A stretch of 64,000 nucleotides of DNA from Owenia fusiformis. Lineage: Eukaryota. The stretch lies in contig CAIIXF020000001.1 in assembly GCA_903813345.2 (NCBI GenBank), positions 22,692,001 through 22,756,000 of the forward strand, read 5' to 3'. This document shows, in pieces, positions 139 to 33,900 of this stretch. The notes beneath the pieces were generated by a model. The model was not told where the DNA came from. It worked only from the letters and a program-made list of their open reading frames with translations, and searched no databases. The stretch's first letter is position 1. Every line of letters begins with the position of its first letter. The position numbers were made by a program, and so were the translations under genes.

Positions 139-3100
139 CTTGGCAGATGCCATCTTTAGTTTGAGCTTTTCACGCAATGTAAGCTTGAGATCTTTTCCTC
201 CTTTTGGAACAGGGCTCTCAGTAGACCCTGGAATGCATACATCTACTTTAGGCTTGGATAATACATGTATGTATGTATGTACATACTCATGTTCAGGTTA
301 AATGTACATGAAGTGTGCAATTATACTATAGTTTTTCATTATTTGTATTTTGTTTATTGAATGAAGGCAATAGTCTGGTTGAATGATAAATTCACTACAC
401 AATGAAAACTGTCGAGTAGAACCTCTGAGTATTGGTCCAAATATTCCACTTAAACAGGTTTTGGTTGATGTAATAGTAAATTCTATCTAAGTATTTTGTG
501 TTAAGCAGAAGATGTTCATAATATATTGACTAACCTCTACTTTCTTGCTTCCTCTCTCTTGGTGTAGGAGGCTTATCGGACTTGCTTGGTTTAACAGCTT
601 TTCGTGGAGTTTCACCATCTTCAATGTCACCATTGACAGCTACAACAGCTGTTTCTAATGAAAGTTCAATTCCAAAATTATTAAACAGGCAATCACCAAA
701 CTCATTTAATTACTCAAAGAATAAGAATCATTTGATTACACACTAAACTATACAAACAGGGCACCAAGAATCAAAGTTGTAATGTGTCTCTCAAAATATA
801 TAAGGCGGCTTAGCCTCATTAGATACAAACAGGGCACCAAGAATCAAGTTGTAATGTGTCTCTCAAAATATATAAGGGAGCTTAGCCTCATTAAATACAA
901 ACAGGGCACCAAGAATCAAAGTTGTAATGTGTCTCTCAAAATATATAAGGGAGCTTAGCCTCATTAAATACAAACAGGGCACCAAGAATCAAAGTTGTAA
1001 TGCGTCTCTCAAAATATATAAGGGAGCTTAGCCTCATTAGATACAAACAGGGCACCAAGAATCAAAGTTGTAATGTGTCTCTCAAAATATATAAGGGAGC
1101 TTAGCCTCATTAGATACAAACAGGGCACCAAGAATCAAAGTTGTAATGTGTCTCTCAAAATATATAAGGGAGCTTAGCCTCATTAAATACAAACAGGGCA
1201 CCAAGAATCAAAGTTGTAATGTGTCTCTCAAAGTATATACTGGAGCTTAGCCTCAATAGATATAATTTTCACTGCTTCACTGCAGTTTCCTGAGGTGTTT
1301 TTAATTCATGCTAGATTCATCGAATACACTTAAACAGCATTTTGCCTTTTTCAATTTACCTTCATCCTCTATAACCTCAATGACTCCATCATCATCATTG
1401 TCTTCCTCATCTTCGTGATCGACATCATCCTCATCTTCGTCTTCACCACCTGACAACTTCTGAGCTTCTAGAATTTTCTGTCTACTTCTTTTCTTCGCAT
1501 CGCGCATTTGTCCCTTGAAGTTCCCACCATCTGAGGCCAGCTCCTTTGTCAACTGTGGCAGAATAGCAGTATCAAAATTAAAAATGGATTACTTAATGAT
1601 TAAGTATAGTCATGTTTCAAAACATATCTAAGTTTTTCACTTGCATTAAAGAAGTAATCATAGGACAAGGGCTTCAATAGAAGCAAACAGTTTTTAGTGA
1701 TTTGTTGTTTAATTCTTTATCATTGTATCCTTTTCACCTGTTTTTGTTTGTCCTTTCTCCGCATAGTTAAGTTCTGCATCAAGGTCTCCGCTTCTCGGAC
1801 CTCATCAAGCATCTAAAAAATCATAAGGAATGAAAATTGCTGTTTGTCATTCATACAAATTATACATCTATATGGTCTTATTAGTTCTAAGTGCTTTCTT
1901 TTCACATCTAGACATTAAGATTTCATGTAATAAACAATTAGATTATCCCCCAAACATTCCTACAGCAGGCATCAACATGCAAAATGTCACCAACTACCAT
2001 TTGTTACACACAAAAAACACCATCCACTGAACACCAACCACCAATATCATCCACAAAAAAGCTGGAGAACATAACAACCTATGGTTGTGACATAATAACA
2101 GCAAATAACATGTAAATTTTTGAAAATTCTATGAGAATATTAGATTTGTGTTAAGTCCAATGATGCAGATTACATACCTCAGCATTCTGCTCTTGGCCAG
2201 TCATTGTTGTCATTTCCATCGCATCTTCTTCCATTGCAGCTGCCTACAAGCATGGTAATATGTCACATAGAAAAAATGTTATATAGGCCTCTTATATTAG
2301 GGAGCATATCAAAAGATCGATATTGGAAAAATAACTGTATTTACACAGTTAGGGAGGAGGGGGTCATTGGCCTAAAAAGTTAGCTTTCCGACATTGTTCC
2401 CGGGAATTCAATTAGTGATGCTAATTTCGTCCAGTACACTTCCGGTACGAAAAATTAAAGAAAAATGTAATCAAAACGGGAACATTTTTCTTTTTCATCG
2501 AGAGAGATTCCATCACTTTCAAGATGGCGGTTGGATTTTAAAGGGGATTCCCCGTTTGACTGGCTTGGAAGTGGCCCGGAAGTACCAATAAATGGAGGAA
2601 TTTGATGGTTGAAATAAGTTAAATATTACACGGAAATATTGAGATCAAAAGCAAAAATATCTTCATTCTGTCGATAAACCCAGACAATTGTGGATTCAAC
2701 TACACGAAAAAGATGATAAAATACCAAGGAATCTATTGAAGTAGGTATCTAAGTGTAAGAAGCGTAGAAAATTCTCCCATGTTGTAATCGTACAGGCAAA
2801 AGATTGAGACGCTCTCAAGACTATAGTCATGGCACCGGATAAAAGATAAATACCTCTTACTATGGCATATCCAATTTCTCAAACCAACAATAACTAATTG
2901 TTTATATCTAATAATATCGACAAATTCAGAGTCCAAAGGGGCTAATATAATCAATGAGCCAAAGATATATTTGTTCATCAGGTAGTTACAACTAAGTTTT
3001 AGAATCATGTGAAAAGTGAATAACGTGAGTTCTTACCCATGTATCATTCTTTGAGCGGCTGCTTCTCGGTGTGCGTTCATTATCACTTTGATCATGGTTA

Positions 3101-3159
3101 ACTAAACTTTCTTTCAAGTCCCTACGCCGTTGTCGAATTTTCTCTGATAATGTTGCCAT
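139..3159 (-). CDS. 5' part of a multi-exon gene encoding an acidic/coiled-coil protein; continues beyond the left edge; weak resemblance to the CC2D2A N-terminus
   Basis: Six GT-AG exons with consistent phases: 3159-3037, 2243-2178, 1812-1738, 1552-1360, 654-535, 227-139. They give MATLSEKIRQRRRDLKESL...EDEDEDDVDHEDEED...LTLREKLKLKMASAK with no stops. The identity is only a guess from the LREKL..A.AK segment. Confidence 0.75.
751..1262. repeat. Intronic minisatellite, about 7 copies of a 72-73 bp unit
   Basis: Unit tacaaacagggcaccaagaatcaaagttgtaatgtgtctctc... starts at 751, 824, 896, 969, 1042, 1115 and 1188. Confidence 0.95.
2400..2842. mobile_element. Copy of the MULE-like MITE family also at 29565-30123 (left boundary approximate)
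   Basis: Shares long blocks with 29565-30123 (aagatggcggttggatttt, caattgtggattcaactacacgaaaa, ggaatctattgaagtaggtatct) and ends with a similar ...ggataa terminus. Confidence 0.7.
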
Positions 3160-3681
3160 TTCAGGGTAAGCAATCTATTACATAGCTGACATTAATGATT
3201 TTTAATTCAGGTGATTTGGGTTATCACTTATTTTTGTGTATAAAAAGTAAATTGAATGGGCGATAATATGTTTGTTTACATTGATCACCGCCATTTCACG
3301 CACATGTAAGAACAAATTTTGTAGATTTATATGTCCCAGATTGTGAAGGAGTACTTCCGATTGAAGGTAGACATAATAACTCCAGCTCTTTATTTACTAA
3401 AAGTGTTACTTTCACCATTTTTGCACCAAAATTTGGGTATTTTTAAAAAAATGGCGCTGGAATTTTAGTCTTCCCACAATGCATCATTTTCAGGAGCATT
3501 ACTTGTTTTCATTTTTTCAAACCATTACTAACCGTTTTATATATTTTTATTCTTATTCATGCAAGTTATACAGAACACCATAGCATTGTGGTATAATAAT
3601 CATAATGAATAGACTAGCAGTTATTTGAAATAAAGCCTAATTTGAAAGTCAAGAAAATAATGCTCCCAGCATCCAAAAAGG
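3160..3681. promoter_or_regulatory. Probable bidirectional promoter between the minus-strand gene and MRPL55
   Basis: Divergent ATGs at 3159 (-) and 3682 (+). Contains YY1-like ccgccattt (~3288) and aaaatggcg (~3448), and ETS-like acttccg (~3353). Confidence 0.6.
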
Positions 3682-6600
3682 ATGGCACTTTTCATCAGGT
3701 AAATTTTGACTTCTTTTTATCTGATATCTGTGTAGACATGATATTTTACTTTAATTATGGTATTGTTTTTGATAAATCGATTCATTGCTAAAATTATTGG
3801 CTGTGACGGAGCACTTGATTTTGCATGTTTGCACTCCTTCAAACAGGAAGTTCAAGTCCCTGATATTTTTTTCAATATTTTTTGATGCTAGGCCTAGATC
3901 TAGTGCATCTTATCGAGGACCACTTTAGATTGTGGTCGTACGCGCGAATCATTGGTCAGTCAATGTTTTTACAAAGTTGGAGAAAATACTACGCATTGCA
4001 CACCTAAATGACCTACCTCGATACATTCCTTAGTATTTTAGAATTCTTTTTATGTAGTTGAATCGTCAATTGTATGGGTTAATCGGCAGAACGAAGAGGT
4101 TTTCGTTTTTGATAGCAATATTTGCGTGTAATATTTAACTTATTTCAACTGTCAAATTCCTCCATTCAGTTCCCCAGTACTGTCAACCCCTAAAGATTTT
4201 CTCGCGGGACAGATTTTTTAGACCCAGTGCCCAAAATTCGCGGGATTTTGCGGGACATCTACTAAATTCGCGGGATTTTGCGGGACATTTAAGGGATTTG
4301 CGTGATTGCGCTAATAGGAGATTTTTTTTATCAAATTCGCGGGATTTCGCGGGACCATTCGAGGGACAAACACCCTAATTGCGGGACAGTTAACAGGTGT
4401 ACCACCAAAAACTTCATAGAGGGACAGATTTTTTAGACAAAGTGCCCTAAATTTGCGGGATTTTGCGGGACATCCACCTAAATTTGCAGGATGTCCCGGG
4501 ACATTCAAGGGATTTGCGTGATTGGGACTAATGTAAAAGCGTGTAGAAGTACTTAAATCAAATTTTCAGATACTGATTAATCAAATATAATGCACCGTTA
4601 CATTGTAACTTAAATAAACGTCAACACAATTTCACAAAATACGCATAGGAATATTATTAAACTTTATTGTAATTTATCAAAAACAAAAACCATGCTTCAG
4701 GTGTGATTACCGTAATCTAACACGAAATTCAAAAATTCGGAACAATACTTTGCACTTCTGGCGTCGTGACCAACTATGAAACGCTTACCCCCATAATGTT
4801 ATATATTAAAATGTACCTATTCATATACTGTAGGCATGGGCTTTCAATTGAAAGCCCATGATATAGGGGTTCGATTAATCTACATCAAATTATAGGGAAT
4901 GAGGTTAATTTTCTAGATAGGGTTTGTATAAAAAACCTGGTACCGGGTAGTAAATCCTCCATGCTGGGTTCAAACTTGGTACCCGGTCGAAAAAAAACCA
5001 AAAAACGAAATATACGAATACACAACATAATTAGATCATCAGAAAACGTGTAAGATGTTTTGAATTTACAAAAATGTATGTAACTTCCTTCAAAATTGAG
5101 CTAGAAGCTTCAAATAAAAAGCATTTTAAGGCTCTTTTCTTCCTCTATCATCTTGGTCATATTTCCATTGGTAATGAAGGGGGGGGGGGGGTGCGATCGC
5201 ACCCCCTCCTGGCTACGCCAATGACATTGTAAGACGATTTGAAAAACAAGACAAATCAATCTTACTCTATTTTCAATAGTTCGTATGTTGGTACGTGAAT
5301 TGTTTTGATTATGATTTAAATCTGTAAATAGCTATCGTTGCTTTAGCAGAGAGGTGACGTGTGTTAATTTGCATGATGCAACGTGTAAGATTTTGATTAT
5401 TAATCATAATTTAAGTTATCCCAATTTATGACAAAATGTCCACTGAATTGTAAATTGTTATGTCTTACAATGTCATAGGCGTAGCCAGGAGAGGGTGCGA
5501 TGGTGCGATCGCACACCCCCCCCCCCATAACCAATGAAAATATGGCCATAACGATAGAGGAAGAAAAGTGCCTTAAAATATGCTTTTTATTTGAAGCTTC
5601 TAGCTCAATTTTGAATCATGTTACATACATTTTTGCAAATTCAAAACAAATCTTACACGTTTTCTCATAATCTAATTATGTTATATATTCGTATTTTTCG
5701 TTTTTTGGGTACCCGTTTTTTTTGACCGGGTACCGGGTACCAAGTTTGAACCCGGCATGGAGGATTTACTACCCGGTACCCGGTTTTTTATACAAACCCT
5801 TTCTAGATATCAGCGTACATTTATTGTAACTCGCGTTTGCTAACATTTGCTCAGTTCTGAGATGAAGGCCACACGGGTAGTAAAAAGGCCAACGTTGGAA
5901 CTATTTGTGACCTACATCCCTATTTTCGTAATTAAAATGAAAGTTGAACCCTTCCCCTTTATTTTGATACCAAACAACAGCATGCTAGGTACTTAAAATT
6001 AGGTAAACTTTACTCCTCAAAAGTGCAAAAACTTAGCTTCTTATATAAGATAAGATAATCAAAATATAGGGGATTGCAACAATTTCGGAAATTCGCGGAG
6101 GTCAAAGCCACATTTTGCGGGACTTCGCGGGACAATGCGGGACACGCAAATTAGCCTAATTTTGATCAAATTCGCGGGATAATCCCGCCATTCGCGGGAC
6201 ACTTGACAGCTCTGGTTCCCGGCATGCACCAGTCATAAGGGAAATCCCTGGGGAATTCCCCTTCCGACATTTTGAAAATTGCTGACATATTTCCGATGTA
6301 AAAACTAAAATCTTTGATTGACCTGAAGATTAGTGTCGCTTCATTTGCAAGAAGATGGATCAGATGACAGTAGTGACGCGCTATCTGGCAGTGACAGTGA
6401 TGATTGAATTTCTTGATTTTCAGTCTTTAGGCATGAACTAAACTAACGTAGCATGGGAGCTGCTTGTGCACTGATTCAACAAGTTAAACTTAGTCTGAGC
6501 CTTATTTCATATCTGATATCTTTTCAGCCTTTGGCTTGGTCTTCCAAGCATATTCCAGTGTCTATTTCATCATATTTGAGACCCATGTTCTACCAAAGGC

Positions 6601-8741
6601 ACTTCAGTGATTTTCTTCAAAGTCACCTACAATGCACCTGTATAATGCAGAACAATATGTTTTTGATGAGTATAAAAACTCTTGAGGGTTTATTTCTGAG
6701 AAAATAATTGTTTTAAATAGCGATTTATTGTATATGTGTTCTTTTATCTCAATCAGATTTAGAATACTACAGAACTCCATGATTAGAACATTTAGGATAT
6801 GAAAAAAACAGAAATCCTTATAGGTCTTCTAGAATGGATTCTAAAACCTTGCTAAAAAAAAGTGACACATATTACCAAACAGGGCTGTCAACTTGGGACC
6901 ATCTAACATGAGTGACTTCCAAATGTTGAACACCTTCCTTCAAACTTTGGACAGCTTCAGTGAACACTGGCAGATTTTGGACACCTAAAATTTTTCCAGC
7001 TCGCTGACGCTCGCTATTCAAGTCCGTCAAGAGGGGGGGGGGGGGGTAGGTGTAAATATTTTGGAAACAAATGCGTGATATATACACATGCTTTGTACCA
7101 AATGCGTGACATAAACGGCAATCGCGTGCAAAGACCGAACGGAATGCGTTCGCTTTTTTTCGCCGTTCGGTATTTTACTGTGTCTGCATTTCACAAAAAA
7201 CGATTTTTAAAAATTTCAACAAAATGCGTGCTTTGCGTGATATTTGATCATACACGCTTAATTGATGCGTGATTTCTATTTTTCCAGCAAATGGGTGACA
7301 ATCACGCCTAATGCGTGAGGGTTGACAGGGCAGTACCAAAGCACATTCTTGTTAATCAAATTAAATGATTATCTTCTCAAAAATGATGCAAAGTTCCATC
7401 TCAAAGTCTTTACCACAGATCAAGAATATATTGAACAACAGTTTAGGTAAATTTGATATGAATCGCTGCAGTGCCTTTGGTAGAACATGTGTCTCAAACA
7501 TGATGAATTTGACACTCTGCAATTTTCAGACGAGTACTAATAGGTAGCGAATGGGTGTCAGAAAATGTGGTACAGGGAAGTCTAAACGTTAACGGATTTG
7601 GCTGAAATTTTTTGTGCTTGGATATGACTATCAGGACAGGAGACCAGTTGGGCAAAAAAGAGCTTGATTTATAGAAAAAAGTCCAAAAATTGAAATTCCC
7701 TAAATTGCACTTCAGTGGCAGATCTGAAAGCTAACAAGGGGAGGGACACATTTCAAGGTAGAAAAGAGTAACAAAATATTAAAGACATGAACTATGGATC
7801 ACTGTTAATGAATGTTATATCTTGTTGCAGATCTGTGAGCAGAAAGTGTCTGCTAACAACGAGGCCTGAGACGAATATTGTATCTTGTTGCTACAACTCA
7901 AATCGTGCCAGCGTAACACGCATCCATCGCTATCTTTATCCTCGTATGTACCCAACTGTCCTTGTCCAGTCAGATGGTTCAACAATAACTGTCCGGTACA
8001 AGGAGCCAAGAAAAATTATCCAGGTATTGTGAAACTACATAATGATCACACTCAATATTCTATGTTATATGCCTTTTTCTAAAAAGTCTATTACTTCTGA
8101 CTTTTTCATGTTAATCCTTTGATTTGAAACATTATCTGGTACAAATTGAAAAATAGGCTTTTTCAGCTCTAATATTCTTATGAATTTGGACATTTCAGTA
8201 ACTTAATGCGCAATAACTTTGATCAAATATGGAATTAAATTAGAAATGCAAGGAAAAATACTCATTATTAAATTCTAACCATGATAAACTGGGTGTTTTA
8301 TGTTGTCAGAGATTCATAATATGCAATTTTTGATGACCTTGACTTAAAAATGTTAACTCAACTAATATTGACCCACATAAACATAGAACTTCATCTGACT
8401 TCTATCTTGCTTTTTAATTTGTGCCAAGTCAAATGTTTTGGGAAAAATAGTGATCTTAGACTTTATGCTTTGGCCAAGAGAATGAAAGCCTAAATGAAAC
8501 ATATATTTTATATTTGGGCATAGGTTTCTCAGATATTTAATATTGTATAATATGGTTAATTATAATTCTGTAATTCACATTTATATTGTAGTTGCCATTG
8601 GACCTATCCAAGCTGACAGAGGCTGAGAGAGTTGCACGAGTAAATAGACGTAAACCTAAGAAAAAACTCATCATAGACCAAGAAATTGACACTAGCTTCG
8701 ATGCCAATAAATACCTTAATCTAGGAAAATCAAAGAAGTAA
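3682..8741 (+). CDS. MRPL55: Mitochondrial ribosomal protein L55 (bL31m)
   Basis: Exons 3682-3698 (MALFI+AG, phase 2), 7831-8023 and 8592-8741, all GT-AG. Protein ...NSNRASVTRIHRYLYPRMYPTVLVQSDGSTITVRYKEPRKIIQLPLDLSKLTEAERVARVNRRKPKKK... fits the L55 signature (YP.VLV..DGSTI.IRY.EPR.I..LP.DL..L.E.ER). The first exon is the least certain. Confidence 0.88.
4175..6214. mobile_element. Non-autonomous hAT-like element with subterminal gcggga repeats, inserted into a MULE-like MITE copy
   Basis: Imperfect TIR cagtactgtcaa / ttgacagctctg; gttccc duplicated at 4169-4174 and 6215-6220; many (c)gcggga motifs near both ends; host MITE sequence on both sides (~4010-4174 and 6215-6300). Confidence 0.7.
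4919..5800. mobile_element. Foldback/hAT-like MITE with ~310-bp inverted arms and an 8-bp TSD
   Basis: Ends agggtttgtataaaaaacc / ggttttttatacaaaccct; perfect TSD ttctagat at 4911-4918 and 5801-5808; arms about 4919-5235 and 5462-5800. Confidence 0.88.
6880..7333. mobile_element. hAT-like MITE
   Basis: Degenerate TIR cagggctgtcaac / gttgacagggcag; taccaaa on both flanks; internal tgcgtga repeats. Confidence 0.6.
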
Positions 8742-8818
8742 AGAAAACATTGATACTGAAGACCTTCTTTTATAACTTAACCTAAACTCTAATTTGTGAA
8801 CAATTACCTATAACTGAT

Positions 8819-10003
8819 ATGAAAACTATCAAAATGGCGACTAATGACTTAAAAGTTCCACCAAAAATAAAGTGCATCTTATTTAGCGAGTTCCACCCCA
8901 TAACGGGCCCTAAGATCACATATCAGGTGCCGCAGGATTATATTACAAAGGAAGAATTTGACATGTTACACGTGTATATAATAACTAAACCAGATCTACA
9001 AAGCAAGGTGATAACTATCAATGCACTTGGACATAAAATTCTCGGCTGCCCCGTTTGCATTGAGAATAGGAAATATAAGAGGAATGCATTGATTTTCAAC
9101 TTGTGTTTTGTGTTTGATGCTTTGGCTGATACAACTTGTTACGAAGGAGTTGTAAAAAAACTGGCTGAGTATATGACAAGGTTGGAGCTTGAGAGTGGAT
9201 TCTTATCACAAAAAGGGAGCAGGTCTTTGCTCCCAGAGCTCCTTACCAGTGGGCTGAGAGATGTCAACGAGAACGGCACTTGTAGTATCCCCATTAACCA
9301 ATCAACAACCATTCGGCTGAAGGTCATCCCATGCCGTACTGATCCCGAACCAGTGCAAGGTCACAATGTGCCAATTTTCATCATTGATAAATCATCACTG
9401 CCGATTTCTCAATGGGATTTGACCACCCAGCAGTTGCTACCATACATCGATGGATTCTTACATGTTAGCAGGATTGCTGCGGAGGCTGATATTGATATCA
9501 ACATCGTGAAACTGTGTGTCCAGAACATGCTACAGCAAAGAGTCGTAACCCTCATATCTATCTTCCAATACAGTAATGTCTACACTGATACGCCATCTAT
9601 AAATATCCTCACGGAGAATATGGATATTCAGAATGAGGCTCTTAAGTTTGTCGTCAAGCAAGGTTCTGCACTCCCAGAATTCAAAGATGTGTTTGTGTTG
9701 TATTGTGGTTTGAATCCTGGTATTACTGTGAGAGACTTATGTGCTAGACATAACCCACATACACTTAGAGTTGATGAGCGGAAATTGATCCAGTTTGGTC
9801 TCATAAAGGGATTCATTCGAAGAATGCATAAATATCCAATCAAACTTCCCCATGGTGCGGGGTCTCAAAGGTTGCGCCACCTATATAAGTGGTTTGATGG
9901 GCGGCATTGTTACGATGAGATATGTTGTGAAGAGGGTATGTCGTATCAGGAACTTGATGATAAAATAGAGAATGATCCTAGTCTTATTGTACTATGGAAG
10001 TAG
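8819..10003 (+). CDS. NPRL2: GATOR1 complex subunit NPRL2, intronless, 394 aa (389 aa from the better-context ATG at 8834)
   Basis: Uninterrupted ORF with typical NPR2-family motifs: IKCILFSEFHPITGPKITYQVP, YKRNALIFNLCFV, WDLTTQQLLPYIDG, IFQYSNVY, DERKLIQFGL, DGRHCYDEICC, terminal WK. AATAAA at 10361 and 10428. Confidence 0.97.
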   Translation: MKTIKMATNDLKVPPKIKCILFSEFHPITGPKITYQVPQDYITKEEFDMLHVYIITKPDLQSKVITINALGHKILGCPVCIENRKYKRNALIFNLCFVFDALADTTCYEGVVKKLAEYMTRLELESGFLSQKGSRSLLPELLTSGLRDVNENGTCSIPINQSTTIRLKVIPCRTDPEPVQGHNVPIFIIDKSSLPISQWDLTTQQLLPYIDGFLHVSRIAAEADIDINIVKLCVQNMLQQRVVTLISIFQYSNVYTDTPSINILTENMDIQNEALKFVVKQGSALPEFKDVFVLYCGLNPGITVRDLCARHNPHTLRVDERKLIQFGLIKGFIRRMHKYPIKLPHGAGSQRLRHLYKWFDGRHCYDEICCEEGMSYQELDDKIENDPSLIVLWK

Positions 10004-10483
10004 GCTTATTGTACTACGGAAGAAAGTTTTATTGTACAATGGAAATTGTAAATGGTCTCATTCTGAGTAAACTCTGTCAAAATTAAATGTAGACCTTAGT
10101 TTTAATCCACTGTTTTATTGTACCATTGATATCATACATTCTAAAAACTGCCAATCCAGTTTAAACTCAGATCTTAGATTTCCTATACCAAAATCTCATC
10201 TCTCTCATCAAAGTTTCAAAAGCATTTGCTCTCTTTTATATTAAATAACCTTTTCAGAATTTGAAATTAGTTATTCCATTTTTCATTTCATTCAATGATC
10301 AAGATTTTTGGGTAGGCTGTTTTCCACTTTGATTTATTAAATTTGAATAGTTGTATCATAAATAAACTGAAGTCAAATGTGATTGTGTAAGAATTTAAAA
10401 AATGTAGAATCATTTTTTGTGTGAAGAAATAAAATGTAATTTTCAAATATACACTAAACTATAAGTTATGTTGATATATTTAG

Positions 10484-10686
10484 CAGTGATCTCCCCAGGA
10501 TTTTTTCTCAGGTGGGTGCAAAATTCCCATTTTCACAATTCAGATAAAATTTGGTCAAAATTTGCCAATTTTTCATGATTCTCATTTTCAAATGGGAGCA
10601 AATGGATTTTCAGGAGGGTGAAAGCCTATTTCCAAAATCTCAGGTGGGTGCTGTGCCCACTTGCTTTAATGCTAGGGAGATCACTG
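10484..10686. mobile_element. Short MITE with the same terminus family as 61037-62090
   Basis: TIR cagtgatctccc / gggagatcactg; no clear TSD. Confidence 0.7.
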
Positions 10687-11564
10687 TGTACTGTATAAGT
10701 GAAGTCATCCATCTGTCTGTTTCTCTTCAAAATGATCAAATTAAGGTCTTTTTTCAACTTGCTTCAGATTAAATTCTTGCTTCAATTTTTTTTTCAAAAT
10801 CATCTACAGTTCTCAGAAGTTCAAATTTGATTTTTAGACTTAGGACTTGACCTTCAATGACCTTCTCAAGGTCAAAAAGTTATTTTATCAACATTTTTCA
10901 AAATCATCTACAAGTTCTCTGAAGTTCAAGTCTGACTTATAGATCGAGCTCATAATATTGTGAACAATTAGGTGGTGATATTTTGTTGTGTCAATTGCCC
11001 CGTCTAATTTAAAATGAGCCATTAAAAATGTAAAATTGCAGTACTCCCCTATTAGACCATTAATGTTAAGGGAAGGGAGGGTACAACAAAGGATAGTACA
11101 TGTACTTAATTTACACATGAAAGATGATATTTGAGATTTTAGTATAAAATCCACAGGAATTGGAATACATTGTTGGTAATGGACATCAAACTGCCCATAA
11201 AAAGCAACAAGAACAATTTTATATCTATAAATATTAATAATTTTATTAGCACAATAAGAATCAAACATCTACAAGTTTCCATTGAGAAATAAAAAGTTTC
11301 CATTGCATGAAGGCACAGGACCCCCTCATATCTGTTTCAATTCCAGAGTTGAGGTGCGTGTCAGAAGAGGGGTAAGAGACTTCTAATGATGTAAATACCT
11401 GATAATATGATAAATATTTACAAACATACATAAATTAGAATTTATAAGAATTGAATTTGAAACCTTCATATATTGAGAAAAAGTGAATAGTAAAAAAATA
11501 ATAGCATTATACATGTACAATAACAACTTCATTCTTCACAAAAGCAAAGACATAAATGAGTATT

Positions 11565-24900: not shown

Positions 24901-27900
24901 TTCATGAACTGTATGTTTAATAGAGTGACCATTAAATTTCTTTGATACAGCAATCGCTCAAAGTGTTTTTTTACTGATCATATAGTAAAATATGTTCTAC
25001 CATCGAAATAGAGGCTTAATTAATTTCATCGATCGGAATATGACACAGGACAACGGATACTGTATAAATGACAACGGTGTGGGTCAAATGTCATGTAAAA
25101 TCGAGGTAATATTTGACAACGGAATATATAAAGACAAGGGTAAAGTGTCTATTTACCAATGTCATTTTCCTATGTTCCAATGCAGTATATCCACCATAGT
25201 CCGTTGTCACATCTTACCATATGCAGTTGTCTTTGTAAATTATTTCAAATTCAGATTCTGTTGTCATTGACAATATCGAAGACGCGCGCGCATTGTGGCG
25301 ATTCACGACCCCATTTGATAGAAATTGGGATTTCACATAATACATCATCACACGAGCTTAATACCTGCATAGAATTAGCGACAATAAACTCCCATGAAAC
25401 AATGACCAAGTGATTAAAGAGTTGAAATGATCGTTATGTCCGCCATTTTTGACAATGGTATCTGACTTTACCGTTGTCAGGCTATTCCGGTGTGTAAATG
25501 TTCTCTCAAAGCCAAAAAAGAAGTGTCTATCTCAAATTGCAGACTTATACACTTCAATCTTTAAATCGGCCAGTATTTCAGAATGTCTGCCATCAGCTTT
25601 GGAAATTATCATCTAGAGCATTACAAACATTACCCGACTGAGGTTACATCCTGTTTCTTTATGCATATACATATATGTATATTGTATATATAAATGGCAT
25701 AATTATAATATCAATGTATTTATTAATGTATCGTTTTGAATATCTAATTCTCATGTGCAAATGGAATTCGAATATATAAAACATTAAGAAAATAAAAAAA
25801 ATATGAAAATCATCATAATTATTCTTTCAGGTCCATCTTTAGCTACAGTTGGCCTAAGTAACAACAATACAACCCTAAATGGTGCAAACAATGGAGCAAA
25901 TGATGTTGGCCCAAGTAACAACAATACAAACCTTGGTGCAAACAATGGAGCAAATGATGTACCAACATGCTCTAAGTATATTCCATACTCTAATGTTATA
26001 ACAGATGAAACAAGCACTGATGTAACTTACAGCAACTACACTGACATGACTGAGCATGTAACACACCAACCGAATGTGGATTCTATACAGTATGGTACAG
26101 AAGGGAATGAAACTAATATAAAGGTAGAACCAGATTTTGTATCTGATCAAGTTGAAGGTTTTGAAACTGAACATGATAATATGACTGACATAAACAATGA
26201 TACCCACCAACCAATGAAACAAGAGATTAACATGAAAGATGCAGCCCAGAATGATGAATCATTTACTCAATGGAAAGACACAGCTAGTCAGGAGACTGGA
26301 ACAGAACTGAAGAACCCAACAACACAGCTGATCACAACTGATCAGGAGACTGGAATAGAACTGAAGAACCCAACAGTATCATTGTGCAGACTATCACAAG
26401 CAGATGTAAAATGTGCGAGGTTGGGGGAATTCATCTGTACAGGGACAGTTATTAGACAACAGGAAAAATGTCAATATCAAATGAAACTGAAAAGACAATT
26501 GAAGGTGAAGACTTCAAAACGATCGATTTTCCACAGTTCAACACCAACCTTAGATCAATCTGTAGAAAAGCTATTCAGATGTAACATTTGTTATGAATCA
26601 TTTTTCAAAATCTCAGATCTTTCTAAACACAACAAGGGACATGCTTATAAAAATAAATCTGAAGTTAAAGCTTTTAAATGTAACCTATGCTCAAATGTAT
26701 ATGCCAGTGCCTATTATCTTGAGTTTCATATCAAAATCCATTTACATGGCAGAAAATTCATATGCAAGGTGTGTTCCAAAGGGTTTCTTACTAGATCTCA
26801 TCTTTCAACACATTATCTCTCCCATACTGGAGAAAAACAATTTGAATGTAATGTTTGCCATAAAACCTGTGCTACAACTTCAGCATACAACAAACATAAG
26901 GAAATTCATACAAGGAGAGATGGAGACAGAAAATTTAAATGCCAGCTATGCTCTAAAGCATATTTTACTAAATCAAATCTTTCTTGTCATATTAAAATTC
27001 ATACTGGAGAAAAAGGGTTTAAGTGTGATATCTGTTCCAAAGCATTTCATGGCAACAGTGCTCTTATTTCACATAAAAGAACACATACTGGGGAGAAACT
27101 ATTTAGTTGCAAAATCTGCAAGAAAGGATTTGCAAGTAAAAATAGTCTTTCAATGCATAACCATATTCATACAGAAGAAAAGCCATACAAATGCAAAGTC
27201 TGCGAAAAGGCATTTAGACATCCAGTGAATCTAAGAACTCATAACAGAATTCATACTGGAGAAAAGCCATATAAATGTAAGATTTGTTCTAAAGCCTTTT
27301 CACACAGTACTCATTTAAGGAGACATCAAACAGTTCATACAGGAGAAAGAAAATATGAATGCAAAATTTGTCCTAAAAGGTTCACAAGTAAATCCTTTCT
27401 TACCGTTCATTATAGAAATCATACTGGTGAAAAACCATTTAAATGTGAAATTTGTTCAAAAGCTTTTACTTCATCTGCCTTTCTAAAGAATCACTCACGT
27501 ATTCATACTGGTGAAAAGCCATTCAAATGCAACATTTGTGAAAGAGCTTTTTCTCGCGCTGGTGGTCTGTTTAAACATAAAATTATCCACAATGAGGAAA
27601 AGGAGTTCAATTGTCAAGTTTGCTTCAAGAAATTTTCTTCAAAAGAACACCTTATAATGCACAACAGAATCCACACAGGAGAGAGGCCATTTAAATGTAA
27701 ACTCTGTCCTAAAGCATTTCATACAAGTTCATCCCTTACTTGCCATAAACGAAATCACACTGGGGAAAAACCATTCAAATGTAAGTTCTGCTCAAAAATA
27801 TTCAAAGATTGCTCTGTATTGTTGGTTCACAAGAGAATTCACACTGGAGAGAAACCATATAAATGCAAAGTATGTCTTAAGGCTTTTTATTGTTCAACAC

Positions 27901-30900
27901 ATTTATATCAACATAACTTTATTCATACTGGGGCAGATAAAAGATTTAAATGCGCATTCTGCACAAAATCATTTTGGCAAAGAAAACCTCTTGCAAAGCA
28001 CGTTGAAACACATATAAAGAAAAAGAGAAACTAAAAACTGGTTTACTGCTTCTGTTTACTGTTTATCTGTTTGTTTTTATGTATGTGATAAAAGACCAAT
28101 TTGTTATTGCTTGGATAGCACATTCAATAAAATGTAAATTGCTTTATATTTGAAGATTCAGTAAATTCATCCGATTTTTCAAAATAAATATACTGCTTTT
28201 ATCATTACATTTATATATACACTAGTATCTTGTTGACCTATATTCAGCACTGCATTGATGAATGGGGCACTTATTAGGGCCAATATGCCATATTAATTCT
28301 TCATCAAAATGGGTAATGGGTAACATTCCTTATTGTCGGTTTTTAATAAGCTGGCTTAGGGAGGAGACTACCTACATCCAGAAGCAAACAAAGGTAGTGT
28401 TTCGATCCAATGGGTTAGGATGATGATATTTATCCATGAATTTGTGGAGCAGTGGTATATTCAAACCTGGACCCAGTATAGAAAATGTTTCCTCAAAGTC
28501 TGCTGAATGTTCCAAATAAAACCAATTTACATTATATAAGTATGTTATTCCTATTTTAAACAATTGAACTTAGCCAGTAACAGTCGACAGCAGTTTGGTA
28601 CATTGCAAAACAATATTGGCGCTATTGTGGTTAAATGCAACTTCCAAATTTAAAATAATTTGCTGTTTCCAAGAAGAAAATTAAAATGAAATTATGACTG
28701 TTTTGTTAATAATGTAAGATTTGATATTTCTCTATTGTAAAATAAAACACTTGTAATAAAGGACAAAACACTGAGTACTTTTTCTGAATTTGATTTAATT
28801 GAGCTTAATCATCTTTCATCAGAGGAGTTTTCAGAATATGGCCACTGAATGAAAATAATAATGGAATTCTTCATGGTTCTACGGGATATGTTTATCAAAA
28901 ATAGAGTATCATGAAAAACATGCCACCATTTCAAATCCATCATTAATGTCAAGAGGAATAATCAAAAAAACATTTACAAGAATTCATCTCTTTAATTTCA
29001 GTACATTTTTGACAAAATAGTGTTATTGAAAGGGCTTTTAAGGATACATGTATTGGATTTTATAAATGTGCCCATAATTAAACCATTATTTCAGGAAGAG
29101 TCAATTGCCCTATATAAACTTATCGAATGAGCTAAATTCCCTTTAATACTCTATACTATATGAACTTTGAACTTTGTATACTGTTAAACTCAAGTGTATT
29201 GATATAGCCTAAGCAGTGGCATAGTTCTAGGTTATGTTGACAGCAGCTATTCTATGTATAGCCTTTATTGAGACATCTACTGCAACATATTCATTGTGAA
29301 AAGATATTTGTATAGCTACTAGCTAGTGACTGTAATACACTGTGCCCGCCACTCAGTAAAGTATGACATATGAACTGCAATCATTTGAGATATTGGAGCT
29401 TGCTAAAAGCCTGTACTAGTACATTTACATTGAATATTCTAGCATTGGTAAGTATTCAGTTTTAGTTCATATTTTAGGTAAAGATAAATTGCGCCACTTA
29501 CATCTACAAACTGCATGTGAGGCCATATCGAAATAAATTAATATTGGATGGAAGGGGGGATTGGTTATCTCGTTCCAAGACTATCTCTACGTTCTAGTCT
29601 TGCGAACGTCTTATTCTTTTGCCTGTATGATTACAACATGGAAGAATTTTCTACGCTTCTTACACTTAAGATACCTATTTCAATAGATTCCTTGGTATTT
29701 TAGCATTATTTTCGTGTAGTTGAATCCACAATTGTGTGGGTTTATCGGCAGAACAAAGAAATTTTCGTTTTTGATCCCAAAATTTGCGTGTAATATTTAA
29801 CTTGTTTCAACCGTCAAATTCTTCCATTTATTGCTTATCCGGCCCACTTCCGGGTCAGTCAAACGGGGAATCCCCTTTTAAATCCAACCGCCATCTTGGA
29901 AAGTGATGGAATATCTCTCGATGAAAAAAGAAAAAAGTTCCAATTCTGCCGATATACCCAAACAATTGTGGATTCAACTACACGAAAAGAATGCTAAAAT
30001 ACCCAGGAATCTATTGAAGTAGGTATCTTAAGTGTAAGGGGCGTAGATAATTTTCCCAAGTTGTAATATCGTACAGGCAAAAGAATAAGACGTTCGCAGG
30101 ACTATAGTCACGGGACGGGATAAGGGGATTGGATGGAGGGGGGATACAGTATATATAAGACATGATAAGACATGCTACTTGAATTTATTCTTATTTATTT
30201 CCCCCTCCATCCAGTATTAATTTATTTCGATTATTTTTTGTATAACGCATGGAAACTAACTTTAAAAAGTGAGCAATGTCATTAGTATTGTGATAATAAC
30301 GTCCCTTATACCTATTTATTACACGTCATGTAGACCATTGTTGCTCGATTTATAGCAAAAACATCGACTTTTGCATGTTGGTGATGAAACGCCTCTTTTA
30401 ATAGATCTCATATCTTAGAAGTGAGCGTTCATAAGCTCCTACTTTTAGCTATTTTTCAGTCACATTTTCAGAGGGCTAAAAAGGTTATTTCATCATGTTT
30501 AGGGTCATTCTGACCATTGCCATTGTGATCCTGGTCATGTAAATGATGGGGGCCCAATGATATGTGGAACTAGTTAAACTTACTGGAGGTCAAAACAGAC
30601 CGCTGTTATCTTGGTTTAAAAAATATCCAAAATCCAGCATGGTTTTGTCACTTTCTGTTTTGTCATTTCCTGTTAAGTACCATGGGACCTTAATGCATTT
30701 TAGATAAACCAGAAATTAAGATGACATCCTCAGATGAGACAAATAAGATCACATGCCTGGAGGAAGAAAAGCTACAAATAACTTCTTCAGATGAGATTAA
30801 TTCAATGGAACACCAACAGATAGATAGTCATAGCAAATTTGAACATTTAAGAGACAGACATTGGAGTGATTGTAAGTTTTTTATTGTGTTCAAGGCCAAA

Positions 30901-33900
30901 ACATATTCTATTTTCTCCCAAAGGGGACACTTCTCGTTTCAATGGCAAATTCTTTTCAAATTCTTTCAAAGGTTTCCTGTCAAGTCTTCTCTAAGATAGA
31001 ATTGTAGATTGAATATATGTGGGGGTACCATTAATTAGTGAGAAAAGAACAATAACTTTTTGAAATTTGCTTTAATTAATTGCATTGATATTTTCACCAA
31101 ATAAACTCCAAGTGATATGCTACATCCCATATAGTTTGATTAGTTAACTCTAACATATGGTGGTTTGAGAGATTTCTCTATGACATCATGACCAGTACCC
31201 TGGAGCAGTTATTAATGTAAAAAAACTGAGGATTTCATGTTTTATTTTCCAGGTCCTCTTTACCAAGATTGCTTTAAGGAATATGATCCGTTTAATCCTA
31301 AAGCTCTTGGGTCAGGATCTTCTGTACTGAAGTATACCTAAGTCCTGACATTATATAAAAATTAGTTATAGTGAATCTACCATAATTAGAAATCATATAG
31401 ATTGCTATGTATTTTATTAAGTTACATTGAGATCTTTGAGAATTCATGCTTATTTCAGCCAATTCTGCTCCACCCCAAAGTACTGCAAAATGGCAGTGTC
31501 TCTTATGTCACAGTCATGTGTGGCATGATATGCAAGATATGACATCAGAATTGGTTGTGTTGTCATAACAACTACCTCAGGACAATGTGTACACACAAAA
31601 TTTGAAAAGTAACAGTCAATTCTTAAAAAAACATGGTAAAAAGTGCCCTGGTTTCTCGTACTTTTTAGCTGTTCCACGGACCCCTAGCAACCGTTGCCAT
31701 GGTAACCGCTGTTGCAATGTATTTATTTGAAAAAATTAACGAGTATGCTCATTCAATACTCTATTCCTCAAGGGATGTATATACCAAATTTTATTGCAAT
31801 TGAATGAATACTAGGATGCTGCCTCAAAATTTTCTCACTAATTAATGATACTCCCTTGTACTATGAATTCTAATACAAAATGTCAATATAAGAACAGTAA
31901 TAATTGTGGGAGTATTCAAAGTAGTACATCCTTTTGCAGGTCTATCTTTCAGAAATGATCTAGGCAACAACAATGATCCAACCAAGATGATTAAAGATAC
32001 AAATGCTACAAAATTCCCACCTGATGTTATTGTGGAAAATACTAGCAAAGATGTAACCAATGATGACCTGACTGAGCAAGATACACACCCAGTTAGTGCA
32101 GATTTCATCAAGTCACAGGGCAATAGAGAAGAGAATGTCAATATAAAGGTAGAACCTGATCAAGTCAATGGTCTTGAAGATGAACATGATAATGTGGATG
32201 ATACAAACAGAGTTGACAATCAAGTGAAACAAGACATTAAACATGAACTTCAAAACTGTCAATCATTTGCTCATTTTGATAACACGGCTGATGAAAATAC
32301 TGAAACAATTGATGAAAATTCTGAAACGATGAATCAAAAGAACCCAACAGTATCACTTTGTAGATTATCAGAAGCAGATATAAAGCTTCTTAAGTCCAGG
32401 AAATACACCTCAAAGAGGAGAATATGTTCATTGATGTCGAAAACGCAACCAACTCTTAACCAAGATCACAAAGGAGAAAGACTGTTCAGATGTAACATAT
32501 GTTATGAAGCATTTTATGAAATCTCTAATCTTTCTAAGCACATCGCTGGACATCTAAAGCAAGCCAAGAGTAGTGTTAAAGCTTTTAAATGTAACCTATG
32601 CTCAAATGTATATACCCATGCCTATTATCTCGATTTTCATATCAAAATCCATTTAAATGGCAGAAAATTCAAATGCAAAGTGTGTTCTAAAGAATATCTT
32701 ACCAGATCTCACCTTTCTGCACATAATCTTGTTCATACTGGAGAAAAGAAATTTTCATGTAATGTTTGCTCTAAAACCTTTGCAACTACTTCAAGATTTA
32801 ATGCACATAAGAAAACTCATTCGAGAGAAAATGAAGACAGAAAATTTAAGTGCCAATTATGCGCTAAAGCATACTTCACAAAAGCAAGTCTTAAATTCCA
32901 CCAGAAAGTTCATGAGGAAGAAAAACAATTTCATTGTGATGTCTGTTCCAAAGCATTTAACCATAAAAGTCATTTCACAAGACATTTAAGAACACATACA
33001 GGAGAGAAACCCTTTAGTTGTAAAATCTGCAAGAAAGCATTTTCATGTAAGAAATCCCTTTCAATGCATAACAACATTCATACAGGTGAAAAGCCATACA
33101 AATGTAAAGTCTGCGAAAAGGCATTTAGACATCAAGTAAATTTGAGAACTCATAACAGGATTCATACTGGAGAAAAGCCATATAAATGTAAGATATGTTC
33201 TAGAGCCTTTTCACACAGTAGTCATGAACGGAGACATCAAAAGGTTCATACAGGAGAAAGAAAATATGAATGTGAGACATGTTTCAAAAGATTTGGAGAC
33301 AAATCATCTCTTAAAGGTCATTACAGAACTCACACAGGTGAGAAACCATTTCAGTGTAAGATTTGTTTGAAAGCCTTTTCTTCATCTGGCATTTTAAGAA
33401 CTCACACACATATTCACACTGGTGAAAAGCCATTTAAATGCAACATTTGTGAAAAAGCCTTTTCTAACCAAAGCAGTCTGTGTACACATAGAATTATCCA
33501 CAATGAGGAAAAAGAATTCAACTGTCAGGTCTGCTTCAAGAAATTTTCTTCAAAAGTACACCTTGTAATGCATAACAGAATCCATACAGGAGAGAGACCA
33601 TTTAAATGTAAACTATGTCCTAAAGCATTTCATACAAGTTCAGCCCTTACTTGCCATAAACGAAATCATACTGGAGAAAAACCATTCAAATGTAAGTTCT
33701 GCTCAAAAACATTCAAAGTATGTTCTAATTTGTTGATGCATAAAAGGCTTCATACTGGGGAGAGGCCATACAAATGTAAATCATGCCCAAAAGCATTTTA
33801 CTGTACATCTCATTTAATTAAACATGAAGTTGTTCATACTGGGGCTGATAAAACATTTAAATGTTCATTTTGCACAAAATCATTTTGGCAGAGAAAACCT

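Follow-up and report, generated by a model that had tools for sequence, protein, structure and literature searches.

Here, we report that in a 64,000-nucleotide window (the whole stretch of DNA that was analysed) from Owenia fusiformis, the gene for the mitoribosomal protein MRPL55 is directly followed on the plus strand by the gene for NPRL2, a GATOR1 subunit that acts as a brake on TORC1. RNA depths are given below for two stranded raw runs with 151-nt reads (X18/X19); two further runs were used as k-mer contigs (X14, X2). The features at the locus are as follows.

3682..3698, plus strand: MRPL55 exon 1, coding part; ATG GCA CTT TTC ATC AG, then donor gtaaat; read on into exon 2 it encodes MALFIR..., with which the deposited protein P0122 begins; outside the RNA-mapped stretch
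7831..8023, plus strand: MRPL55 exon 2; Pfam Mitoc_L55 E 3.2e-19; 100% identity to P0122; RNA depth 38/25
8024..8591, plus strand: MRPL55 intron 2; GT..AG; 31 (X18) and 29 (X19) spliced reads; depth 0 in five 100-nt bins (8042-8541) in both runs
8592..8741, plus strand: MRPL55 exon 3, coding part by translation; TAA at 8739-8741; Pfam Mitoc_L55 E 4e-07; RNA depth 39-50
8706..8742, plus strand: candidate proximal poly(A) signals from a motif scan; AATAAA 8706-8711 and AGTAAA 8737-8742, the latter overlapping the MRPL55 stop
8742..8818, plus strand: intercistronic spacer, 77 nt; AU-rich; no ATG, no CG, no acceptor
8819..10003, plus strand: NPRL2 CDS, single exon, 394 codons; alternative start 8834; TAG at 10001-10003; RNA depth 45-81 (X18) and 33-62 (X19)
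9979..10045, plus strand: tandem 22-nt repeat in three copies (family D1, repeat search; 100/91/82% identity), covering the end of the NPRL2 CDS with its stop and running into the 3' UTR
10004..10457, plus strand: NPRL2 3' UTR; ATTAAA at 10082, 10240 and 10336; AATAAA at 10361 and 10428; the last X14 contig ends at 10457

Two intact genes on one strand

MRPL55 has three coding exons, and the joined model 3682-3698 + 7831-8023 + 8592-8738 equals a deposited 119-aa protein labelled Owenia fusiformis (P0122) in a by-eye comparison of both sequences. P0122 matches Pfam Mitoc_L55 (PF09776) with an E-value of 1e-32 and 112.8 bits over profile positions 10-112 of 116, i.e., along the whole profile, and judged by this match MRPL55 is a member of the mitochondrial ribosomal protein L55 family. 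An earlier reading of the locus from its sequence only had placed the exon 1 donor at 3698, which stands, whereas its start codon has to be replaced by ATG 3682, not 3660, by the match to P0122. The RNA depth of ~3 in bin 7742-7841 agrees with exon 2 beginning at 7831. Skipping of exon 2 (3698 joined to 8592) had been proposed as a possible route to NPRL2 translation; with exon 1 outside the RNA-mapped stretch, the exon 2-exon 3 junction reads (31/29) amount to ~86-92% of the crossings expected at the exon 3 boundary (depth 39) and therefore leave little room for it.

The description of NPRL2 as intact and intronless was borne out, its 394-codon ORF running without interruption through a full-length Pfam NPR2 domain (PF06218; score 294.9 bits, curated cut-off 27.5, E 1.3e-87). 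The protein has 543 homologues, the best among the matches listed with 64-65% identity over 96-97% of the query, and 19 relatives, 55-64% identical to it, align along its entire length, with 62 invariant columns in the 20-sequence alignment. Taken on its sequence, it is an NPR2-family GATOR1 subunit in which the conserved residues are kept. Among the 19 CDS variants listed, 17 are synonymous vs 2 nonsynonymous. MRPL55 and NPRL2 are both intact and under purifying selection.

Among the best 120 of the 543 deposited matches, none exceeds 65% identity to the NPRL2 of this locus, although the same collection does include this species' MRPL55 (P0122). The deposited annotation therefore seems to lack NPRL2 at 8819-10003, which ought to be included; MRPL55 deposited with no NPRL2 listed beside it fits an annotation that treated the locus as one transcript. 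An intronless NPRL2 directly behind another gene's stop may also be taken as a non-functional processed pseudogene that a long MRPL55 3' UTR passively carries along. We find this scarcely credible: the ORF is intact, the 62 invariant columns are common with the relatives, a closer NPRL2 is missing from those same best matches, and it was the 17:2 ratio of synonymous to nonsynonymous variants on which we rejected it.

Origin of the single-exon NPRL2

NPRL2 at this locus lacks introns that its relatives carry. Nine of the 18 related contigs with a best-segment identity of at least 45% have split matches; several of the nine break near residues 239-241, 278-321 and 373-374, and five do so at 373-374. 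In the claim that NPRL2 is retroposed, the missing introns are confirmed and the accompanying marks are not: no A-run that would represent a poly(A) remnant follows 10433, and the best flanking direct repeat (8768-8798 / 10440-10470, 71% over 31 nt) is, as a candidate target-site duplication, no better than many other regional pairs, its chance level being a rough estimate. The arrangement is like that of processed retrogenes using a host promoter, in that a single-exon CDS, where relatives have introns, sits within or after the last exon of a different gene; unlike a typical processed retrogene, it has neither a poly(A) remnant nor a convincing target-site duplication. Retroposition of NPRL2 is likely, and NPRL2 would have arrived in this way or lost its introns. 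Intronless NPRL2 also occurs elsewhere, in two contigs (L009 and L005) without MRPL55. Literature searches for NPRL2 together with intronless gave only unrelated papers among the matches listed, and those for bicistronic, retrogene and host gene gave nothing on this arrangement.

RNA across the spacer

All reads in 7742-10441 have their first mate on the minus strand in both X18 and X19, the usual sign of plus-sense RNA in stranded libraries, and same-strand coverage is unbroken from the MRPL55 ORF through the spacer into the NPRL2 ORF in both runs. Point depths (X18/X19) are 34-43/22-28 in exon 2, 39-44/39-47 in exon 3, 32/24 at 8818 and 57/49 at 8905. The spacer bin 8742-8841 has a depth of 29.8/30.6, i.e., ~60% of the flanking depth, and the flanking bins are at plateau with no ramp (44/50 in 8642-8741, 57/44 in 8842-8941); in round terms, the NPRL2 plateau is ~45-60x vs ~45x in exon 3 and ~30x in the spacer, and MRPL55 and NPRL2 differ in depth within a factor of ~1.2-1.6 in both runs. 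Please note that depth dips in read mapping and holes in the contig runs are no evidence by themselves. The RNA that enters exon 3 is spliced MRPL55 RNA, because the 31/29 junction reads nearly equal the exon 3 depth. A separate NPRL2 start in intron 8024-8591, named beforehand as an outcome that would speak against a bicistronic mRNA, is ruled out, since the depth at 8042-8541 is zero in both runs. Of the bicistronic MRPL55-NPRL2 mRNA itself, expression of both genes from the plus strand and continuous transcription of the spacer are confirmed; the presence of both ORFs on one molecule goes beyond what the short reads show. The allele frequencies suggest more than two haplotypes and are therefore unusable for linking both genes.

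The MRPL55 stop at 8739-8741 and the NPRL2 ATGs at 8819/8834 lie on one strand as described, and the sequence and the motif scan agree with the account of the 77-nt spacer: AATAAA and ATTAAA are lacking in 8742-8818, there is no CG and no convincing acceptor (AG dinucleotides occur only at 8742-43 and 8760-61, neither preceded by a pyrimidine tract), and the two frames differ, (8819-8592) mod 3 being 2. The AATAAA noted inside the MRPL55 CDS at 8706-8711 is present, and the scan found another inside the NPRL2 CDS, at 8866. Downstream of the candidate proximal signals lie a U-rich stretch (8764-8771) and TTTGTG (8793-8798). At the 3' end of NPRL2, both AATAAA motifs taken for the first clear downstream signals (10361 and 10428) are there, and they are not the first, as ATTAAA precedes them at 10082, 10240 and 10336. 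X18 depth falls across 10042-10441 as 41 > 19 > 8 > 3.6; since it already halves after ~10142, most transcripts end before 10361. A repeat lies at 10484-10686, downstream of NPRL2, and the loose read ends, among those listed, all fall at 10480-10690 in this repeat.

How the 5' end of NPRL2 arises can be read in several ways. One of them is splicing, in which an acceptor before the ATG would receive either a trans spliced leader, as in operons of the nematode/tunicate type, or an upstream non-coding exon (e.g., MRPL55 exon 1). A T>G variant at 8818 (11/32 reads in X18, 3/24 in X19) would place an AG immediately ahead of the ATG, and CTCTAAT lies 26-32 nt upstream; the second X14 contig starts exactly at 8819 with an unplaced predecessor branch; and the intronless relative L009 has a pyrimidine tract and an AG 75 nt before its ATG. 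But in the reference spacer the last AG is the one at 8760-61 and neither AG is preceded by a pyrimidine tract, reads of either allele continue through 8818 (32 and 24 reads), and no splice joint into the spacer is among those listed for X18 and X19, so we regard splicing as highly improbable. Trans-splicing onto NPRL2, which had been raised as a possible objection to a bicistronic mRNA, thus finds neither an acceptor upstream of NPRL2 in the spacer nor a listed joint into it. Spliced-leader trans-splicing is not known in annelids, and a literature search for Owenia fusiformis with operon, bicistronic or trans-splicing returned no paper on the species among the matches listed.

A far stronger contender is that of two separate units that overlap or abut, i.e., MRPL55 polyadenylated at ~8745-8790 by AATAAA 8706 or AGTAAA 8737 and NPRL2 started from its own promoter at ~8690-8735, with no dicistronic mRNA of any weight; the unbroken coverage would then be a falling end and a rising end summed. 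We consider this a substantial possibility, somewhat short of an even chance. The two proximal signals, followed 20-60 nt further on by tracts rich in U and in GU, resemble a working poly(A) site. One X14 contig (8735-8848) bridges the stop-codon region, the spacer and the NPRL2 start, and its beginning at 8735 is a lead only, as is the lack of any contig on MRPL55 exon 2 or 3 in X14 and X2, where NPRL2 is well covered (depth 45.7 and >1500); a leader from 8735 has no ATG before 8819. The depth at 8818 is ~0.5-0.6 of the NPRL2 plateau, about as a start near 8735 gives with 151-nt reads, though such a dip alone is no finding. In transcript-like contigs of relatives (L001-L003), the leader is short, 106-128 nt, and lacks MRPL55. 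The short reads do not link the exon 2-exon 3 junction to NPRL2, and overlapping mRNA ends also give flat coverage. On the other hand, the flanking bins stand at plateau with neither a 3' nor a 5' ramp, a start-site ramp would put the spacer bin mean (~30) below the depth measured at 8818 (32/24), which it is not, both ends must overlap by at least 25 nt to conceal a gap, and the depths of MRPL55 and NPRL2 are similar in both runs.

We favor a single, tightly packed same-strand unit in an annelid-type genome, in which readthrough from the MRPL55 promoter yields a mature dicistronic mRNA, probably with monocistronic forms alongside; we put this at about an even call. Polymerase would start at the MRPL55 promoter, upstream of 3682, and would often run past the MRPL55 stop without terminating at the composite poly(A) site there, a weak one; after crossing the single-exon NPRL2 it would reach the poly(A) sites at ~10100-10457 and so give a dicistronic MRPL55-NPRL2 mRNA. 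Such an RNA would not be an exon-junction NMD target, because, with NPRL2 intronless, the MRPL55 reading frame terminates in the final exon. Monocistronic forms probably coexist, as at most Drosophila dicistronic loci: a short MRPL55 mRNA would end at ~8745-8770, and an NPRL2-only RNA would begin within the final tens of bases of MRPL55 exon 3. That both genes share a transcript is plausible, and the locus probably belongs among the dicistronic or overlapping gene pairs already known as a class in animals; the single molecules with both ORFs, the mix of isoforms and the RNA that is translated are what we infer.

Translation of NPRL2 and comparable loci

Upstream of the NPRL2 start, the spliced RNA contains four AUGs (3682, 7946, 7974 and 8701), of which the first has a strong context, with A at -3 and G at +4. 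The spacer is no more structured than its shuffles (MFE -12.6 kcal/mol vs a shuffle mean of -14.3, z +0.59), and Rfam has no match in 3000-11000. Translation of NPRL2 as a second cistron would, in terms of sequence, be mechanistically unfavourable because of the four upstream AUGs, the strong MRPL55 start and the unstructured spacer. The NPRL2-only RNA, with its AUG-free leader, would be the likelier template for most NPRL2 protein. It is unlikely in our estimate that NPRL2 is a sole copy with no promoter of its own, made mainly from the dicistronic mRNA by reinitiation or internal entry, after a retrocopy inserted into the MRPL55 3' UTR took over from the parent gene. If it were so, the output of the TORC1 brake would be hard-wired to the transcription, perhaps also the translation, of a mitoribosomal protein; a functional link between mitoribosome and TORC1 is pure conjecture, drawn from the adjacency of MRPL55 and NPRL2.

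A precedent exists for translation of this kind. In LINE-1, termination-reinitiation between ORF1 and ORF2, as described in PMC3520747, is an example of second-ORF translation after a full-length first ORF without specific inter-ORF sequence; LINE-1 RNA differs in being retrotransposon RNA, and here reinitiation is only an analogy. The human NMD-immune polycistronic transcripts described in PMC3951408 resemble this locus in having the downstream ORF in the terminal exon with no junction behind the first stop, whereas NMD insensitivity and translation initiation were assayed there and are conjectural here.

MRPL55 beside NPRL2 was also sought in relatives, as the sequence-only reading had suggested, and was seen in 0 of 47 related metagenome contigs encoding NPRL2 relatives, which is weak evidence of absence as most of them have only ~100-500 nt upstream and their taxa are unknown. 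MRPL55 exon peptides gave seven chance-level tblastn matches in these contigs (E 0.16-8.3), none upstream of NPRL2 on its strand. Fused MRPL55-NPRL2 models did not occur either, with PF09776 in 0 of the 120 near-length NPRL2 matches (the best 120 listed) and in 0 of 7 longer ones. A literature search for MRPL55 with NPRL2 gave only an unrelated match, and a search of the supplement files of PMC4528330 other than file 1 turned up neither mRpL55 nor Nprl2.

If confirmed, the locus would provide a clear case, from an animal other than an insect, of one dicistronic mRNA that brings together two housekeeping regulators with no relation to each other, the first a subunit of the mitoribosome and the second of GATOR1. 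In that case it would also exemplify an essential gene that persists as a single-exon copy within the transcript of another gene. FlyBase, as counted in PMC4528330, holds 159 dicistronic pairs, 114 of them with a monocistronic alternative for at least one member. The closest case in that paper (supplement file 2) is Drosophila mRpL53-CG33155, where the 5' cistron is likewise a mitoribosomal protein gene and the 3' gene is unrelated and on the same strand; the gap is 8 nt there vs 77 nt here, and the partner gene differs. The Drosophila cases in PMC4528330 rest on cDNA clones and start-site maps, the present one on short-read continuity. According to the same source, CG33155 also has an alternative promoter, and we suspect likewise for NPRL2 here.

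The MRPL55 and NPRL2 genes

Both genes lie on the plus strand of AT-rich (~35% GC), repeat-rich eukaryotic DNA, with the following features:

3682-3698, plus: coding part of MRPL55 exon 1, matching the N-terminus of P0122 (a deposited protein of the species), with a donor at 3698
7831-8023, plus: MRPL55 exon 2 (Pfam Mitoc_L55, E 3.2e-19)
8592-8741, plus: coding part of MRPL55 exon 3 (Pfam Mitoc_L55, E 4e-07)
8739-8741, plus: MRPL55 stop TAA, by translation
8742-8818, plus: spacer of 77 nt, without ATG, CG, AATAAA or ATTAAA
8819-10003, plus: NPRL2 ORF, 394 codons in a single exon, second ATG at 8834 (Pfam NPR2)

In a search of a 5.8-billion-protein collection, the exon 2 peptide had one hit at 100% identity, the 119-aa P0122, whose record reads 'unnamed protein product [Owenia fusiformis]'. 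Read by eye, 3682-3698 joined to 7831-8023 and 8592-8738, from ATG 3682, gives the P0122 sequence; the sequence-only reading thus had both the exons and the 3698 donor right, and translation confirms its stop at 8739-8741. The start codon needs correction, i.e., it is ATG 3682 (A at -3, G at +4), ATG 3660 being out of frame.

NPRL2 is, as claimed, intact and uninterrupted, 77 nt after the MRPL55 stop in a different frame, with ATGs at 8819 and 8834. Its product is a full-length NPRL2 (Pfam NPR2, 294.9 bits) with 543 matches in the protein collection, the best being nemertean, hemichordate, mollusc and annelid NPRL2 proteins, which cover 96-99% of the query at 55-65% identity; a 20-sequence alignment has 62 invariant columns. 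Among the variants listed from RNA reads, 17 of the 19 inside the NPRL2 CDS are synonymous and 2 nonsynonymous, and MRPL55 has 6 synonymous and 1 nonsynonymous, a further 74 variants lying outside this listing. Purifying selection therefore acts on both genes, and it is very improbable that the NPRL2 ORF is a pseudogene. No NPRL2 more than 65% identical was found among the best 120 of the 543 matches, nor among longer proteins, and the same collection does contain the MRPL55 of this species; therefore, the NPRL2 gene seems unannotated in the deposited data, and there seems to be no annotated second copy among the matches listed. The practical result is the location of an apparently unannotated NPRL2 gene at 8819-10003.

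The NPRL2 CDS ends in a 22-nt sequence that occurs in three tandem copies (9979-10045; 100/91/82% identity) spanning the stop into the 3' UTR, with a fourth, partial copy at 10112-10139; RNA reads carry small indels near these copies, at 10039-10126. MRPL55 intron 1 holds a large nested inverted repeat (approximately 4912-5235 versus 5462-5807; arms of 40-76 nt, 86-96% complementary), which is a foldback-type element, a second inverted pair (6557-6634/7439-7516), and a short GCGGGA-containing repeat, by eye, clustered at 4200-4510 and 6090-6200 (e.g., TTCGCGGGA, TTTTGCGGGACA). About 520 nt upstream of exon 1 and facing away, a 55-codon minus-strand ORF with an ATG (2992-3159) is a possible first exon of a gene transcribed divergently; a Pfam search of it gave no match.

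RNA across the spacer

RNA reads were placed on 7742-10741, from MRPL55 exon 2 onward, using two stranded raw-read runs (X18 and X19, 151-nt reads) and two contig runs (X14 and X2). Every X18 and X19 read within 7742-10441 lies in a single orientation, with first mates on the minus strand, the pattern that plus-sense RNA gives in most stranded libraries. Intron 2 (8024-8591, GT..AG) is spliced out in 31 (X18) and 29 (X19) reads and has zero depth in five 100-nt bins of both runs, and therefore an NPRL2 start site within it, considered earlier as grounds against the bicistronic reading, is excluded. Given depth 39 at the exon 3 boundary, these junction reads make up ~86-92% of those expected to span it: nearly all RNA that reaches exon 3 is exon 2-spliced MRPL55 RNA, and the exon 2 skipping proposed previously (3698 joined to 8592) is therefore minor at most.

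Point depths (X18/X19) are 34-43/22-28 in exon 2, 39-44/39-47 in exon 3, 32/24 at 8818 and 57/49 at 8905; bin means run 44/50 (8642-8741), 30/31 (8742-8841) and 57/44 (8842-8941). The NPRL2 body has 45-81/33-62, and past it depth declines in the steps 41/28, 19/15, 8/7 and, by 10342-10441, 3.6/5.4. Transcription thus crosses the spacer gap-free at ~60% of the flanking depth, the flanks staying at plateau up to it; please note that a depth dip, like a hole in the contig runs, is no proof of absence. Our best reading, to which we give an even chance, is a shared MRPL55-NPRL2 transcription unit with read-through dicistronic RNA. The bicistronic claim is partly upheld: the reality of both genes and unbroken spacer coverage in two runs stand, but this coverage would also fit two overlapping mRNAs, 151-nt reads being too short to join the MRPL55 splice junction and NPRL2 codons on one molecule.

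Two separate but overlapping mRNAs are a close second and quite possible, since an MRPL55 mRNA ending tens of bases past its stop and an NPRL2 RNA starting late in exon 3 would together give the same flat profile. X14 (labelled '?') and X2 (labelled 'RNA?') point the same way as a lead only; from zero intron depth and an RNA-like fall across the 3' UTR, we infer that they are RNA. NPRL2 depth is 45.7 in X14 and above 1500 in X2; in both runs, MRPL55 exon 2 and the part of exon 3 before 8735 are free of contigs, holes that prove nothing. The first X14 contig (8735-8848) overlaps the next (8819-10048) by exactly 30 nt, which implies that the contig graph branches at polymorphic base 8818, with a further alternative arm. 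At face value, these runs would suggest, as a lead only, an NPRL2-only RNA starting at ~8705-8735.

Candidate processing signals, all from the plus strand, are:

8706, plus: AATAAA (motif scan)
8737-8742, plus: AGTAAA, overlapping the MRPL55 stop (motif scan)
8764-8771 and 8793-8798, plus: U-rich tract and TTTGTG, downstream of AGTAAA
8866, plus: AATAAA within the NPRL2 CDS
10082, 10240 and 10336, plus: ATTAAA, before AATAAA at 10361 and 10428

The first four, i.e., AATAAA 8706, AGTAAA 8737, the U-rich tract and TTTGTG, together resemble a poly(A) site that could be used. The AATAAA signals at 10361 and 10428 are present as described, but they are not the first downstream, being preceded by AATAAA 8866 and the three ATTAAA. 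The description of the spacer as free of AATAAA, CpG and a convincing acceptor holds on inspection and motif scan: AG occurs only at 8742-43 and 8760-61, with no pyrimidine tract before either, and a spliced or trans-spliced NPRL2 5' end is unlikely. A T>G variant at 8818, the base before the NPRL2 ATG (11/32 and 3/24 reads in X18 and X19), would make an AG that abuts this ATG. Folding of 8700-8860 is no better than that of shuffles (z +0.59; 142 of 200 fold at least as well), and an Rfam search of 3000-11000 matched no family.

Translation of NPRL2 and known dicistronic mRNAs

In a dicistronic RNA, four AUGs (3682, 7946, 7974 and 8701) precede the NPRL2 start, the first in strong context and opening a 119-codon ORF, so that leaky scanning to NPRL2 would be unlikely; reinitiation after such a long ORF is normally inefficient. 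An RNA from ~8735 would have an AUG-free leader of ~84 nt before the NPRL2 ATG, and if both RNA forms exist, we think that most NPRL2 protein would come from it. NPRL2 being intronless, the terminal exon of the dicistronic RNA would contain the MRPL55 stop, the same NMD-immune layout that PMC3951408 describes for polycistronic transcripts.

Dicistronic mRNAs are already established in animals, and MRPL55-NPRL2 may be a further case. PMC4528330 gives 159 dicistronic pairs in FlyBase: 45 with both proteins from dicistronic RNA only, 45 with both genes also monocistronic, and 69 with one. The closest precedent is Drosophila mRpL53-CG33155 (supplement), likewise a mitoribosomal gene first and its partner close behind (8 nt stop-to-start there, 77 here), in which mRpL53 is dicistronic only and CG33155 has an alternative promoter. 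In the supplement files other than file 1, mRpL55 and Nprl2 are not present, and we found no literature linking MRPL55 with NPRL2.

Origin of the intronless NPRL2 and neighboring repeats

Among 18 related metagenome contigs compared for introns (best-segment identity at least 45%), NPRL2 is split into several segments in nine, five of them with a break at residues 373-374, and is a single segment in the other nine. Introns are thus widespread in this family, and the intronless state here is derived. It is not unique to this genome: one 4.8-kb single-segment contig (L009) has a continuous NPRL2 CDS at 59% identity, with MRPL55 absent from the 520 nt upstream. The pairing occurs in 0 of 47 related contigs, most having little upstream sequence. 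Retroposition of NPRL2, as proposed, is plausible in that introns of relatives are missing, but the NPRL2 flanks lack both a poly(A) remnant and any target-site duplication better than chance.

Elsewhere in the window, a MITE-like element of ~200 nt (10484-10686; 19-nt terminal inverted repeats, 89% complementary) has reads on both strands in all four runs, with many different flanks and depth far above the adjoining gene. Two paralogous plus-strand frames, open from stop to stop (25788-28034, 748 aa; 31867-33945, 692 aa), encode multi-C2H2 zinc-finger proteins (Pfam zf-H2C2_2, E 3.3e-88 for the first), and a tandem repeat at 42935-43510 yields open frames on both strands, in which a unit of ~20 residues recurs.
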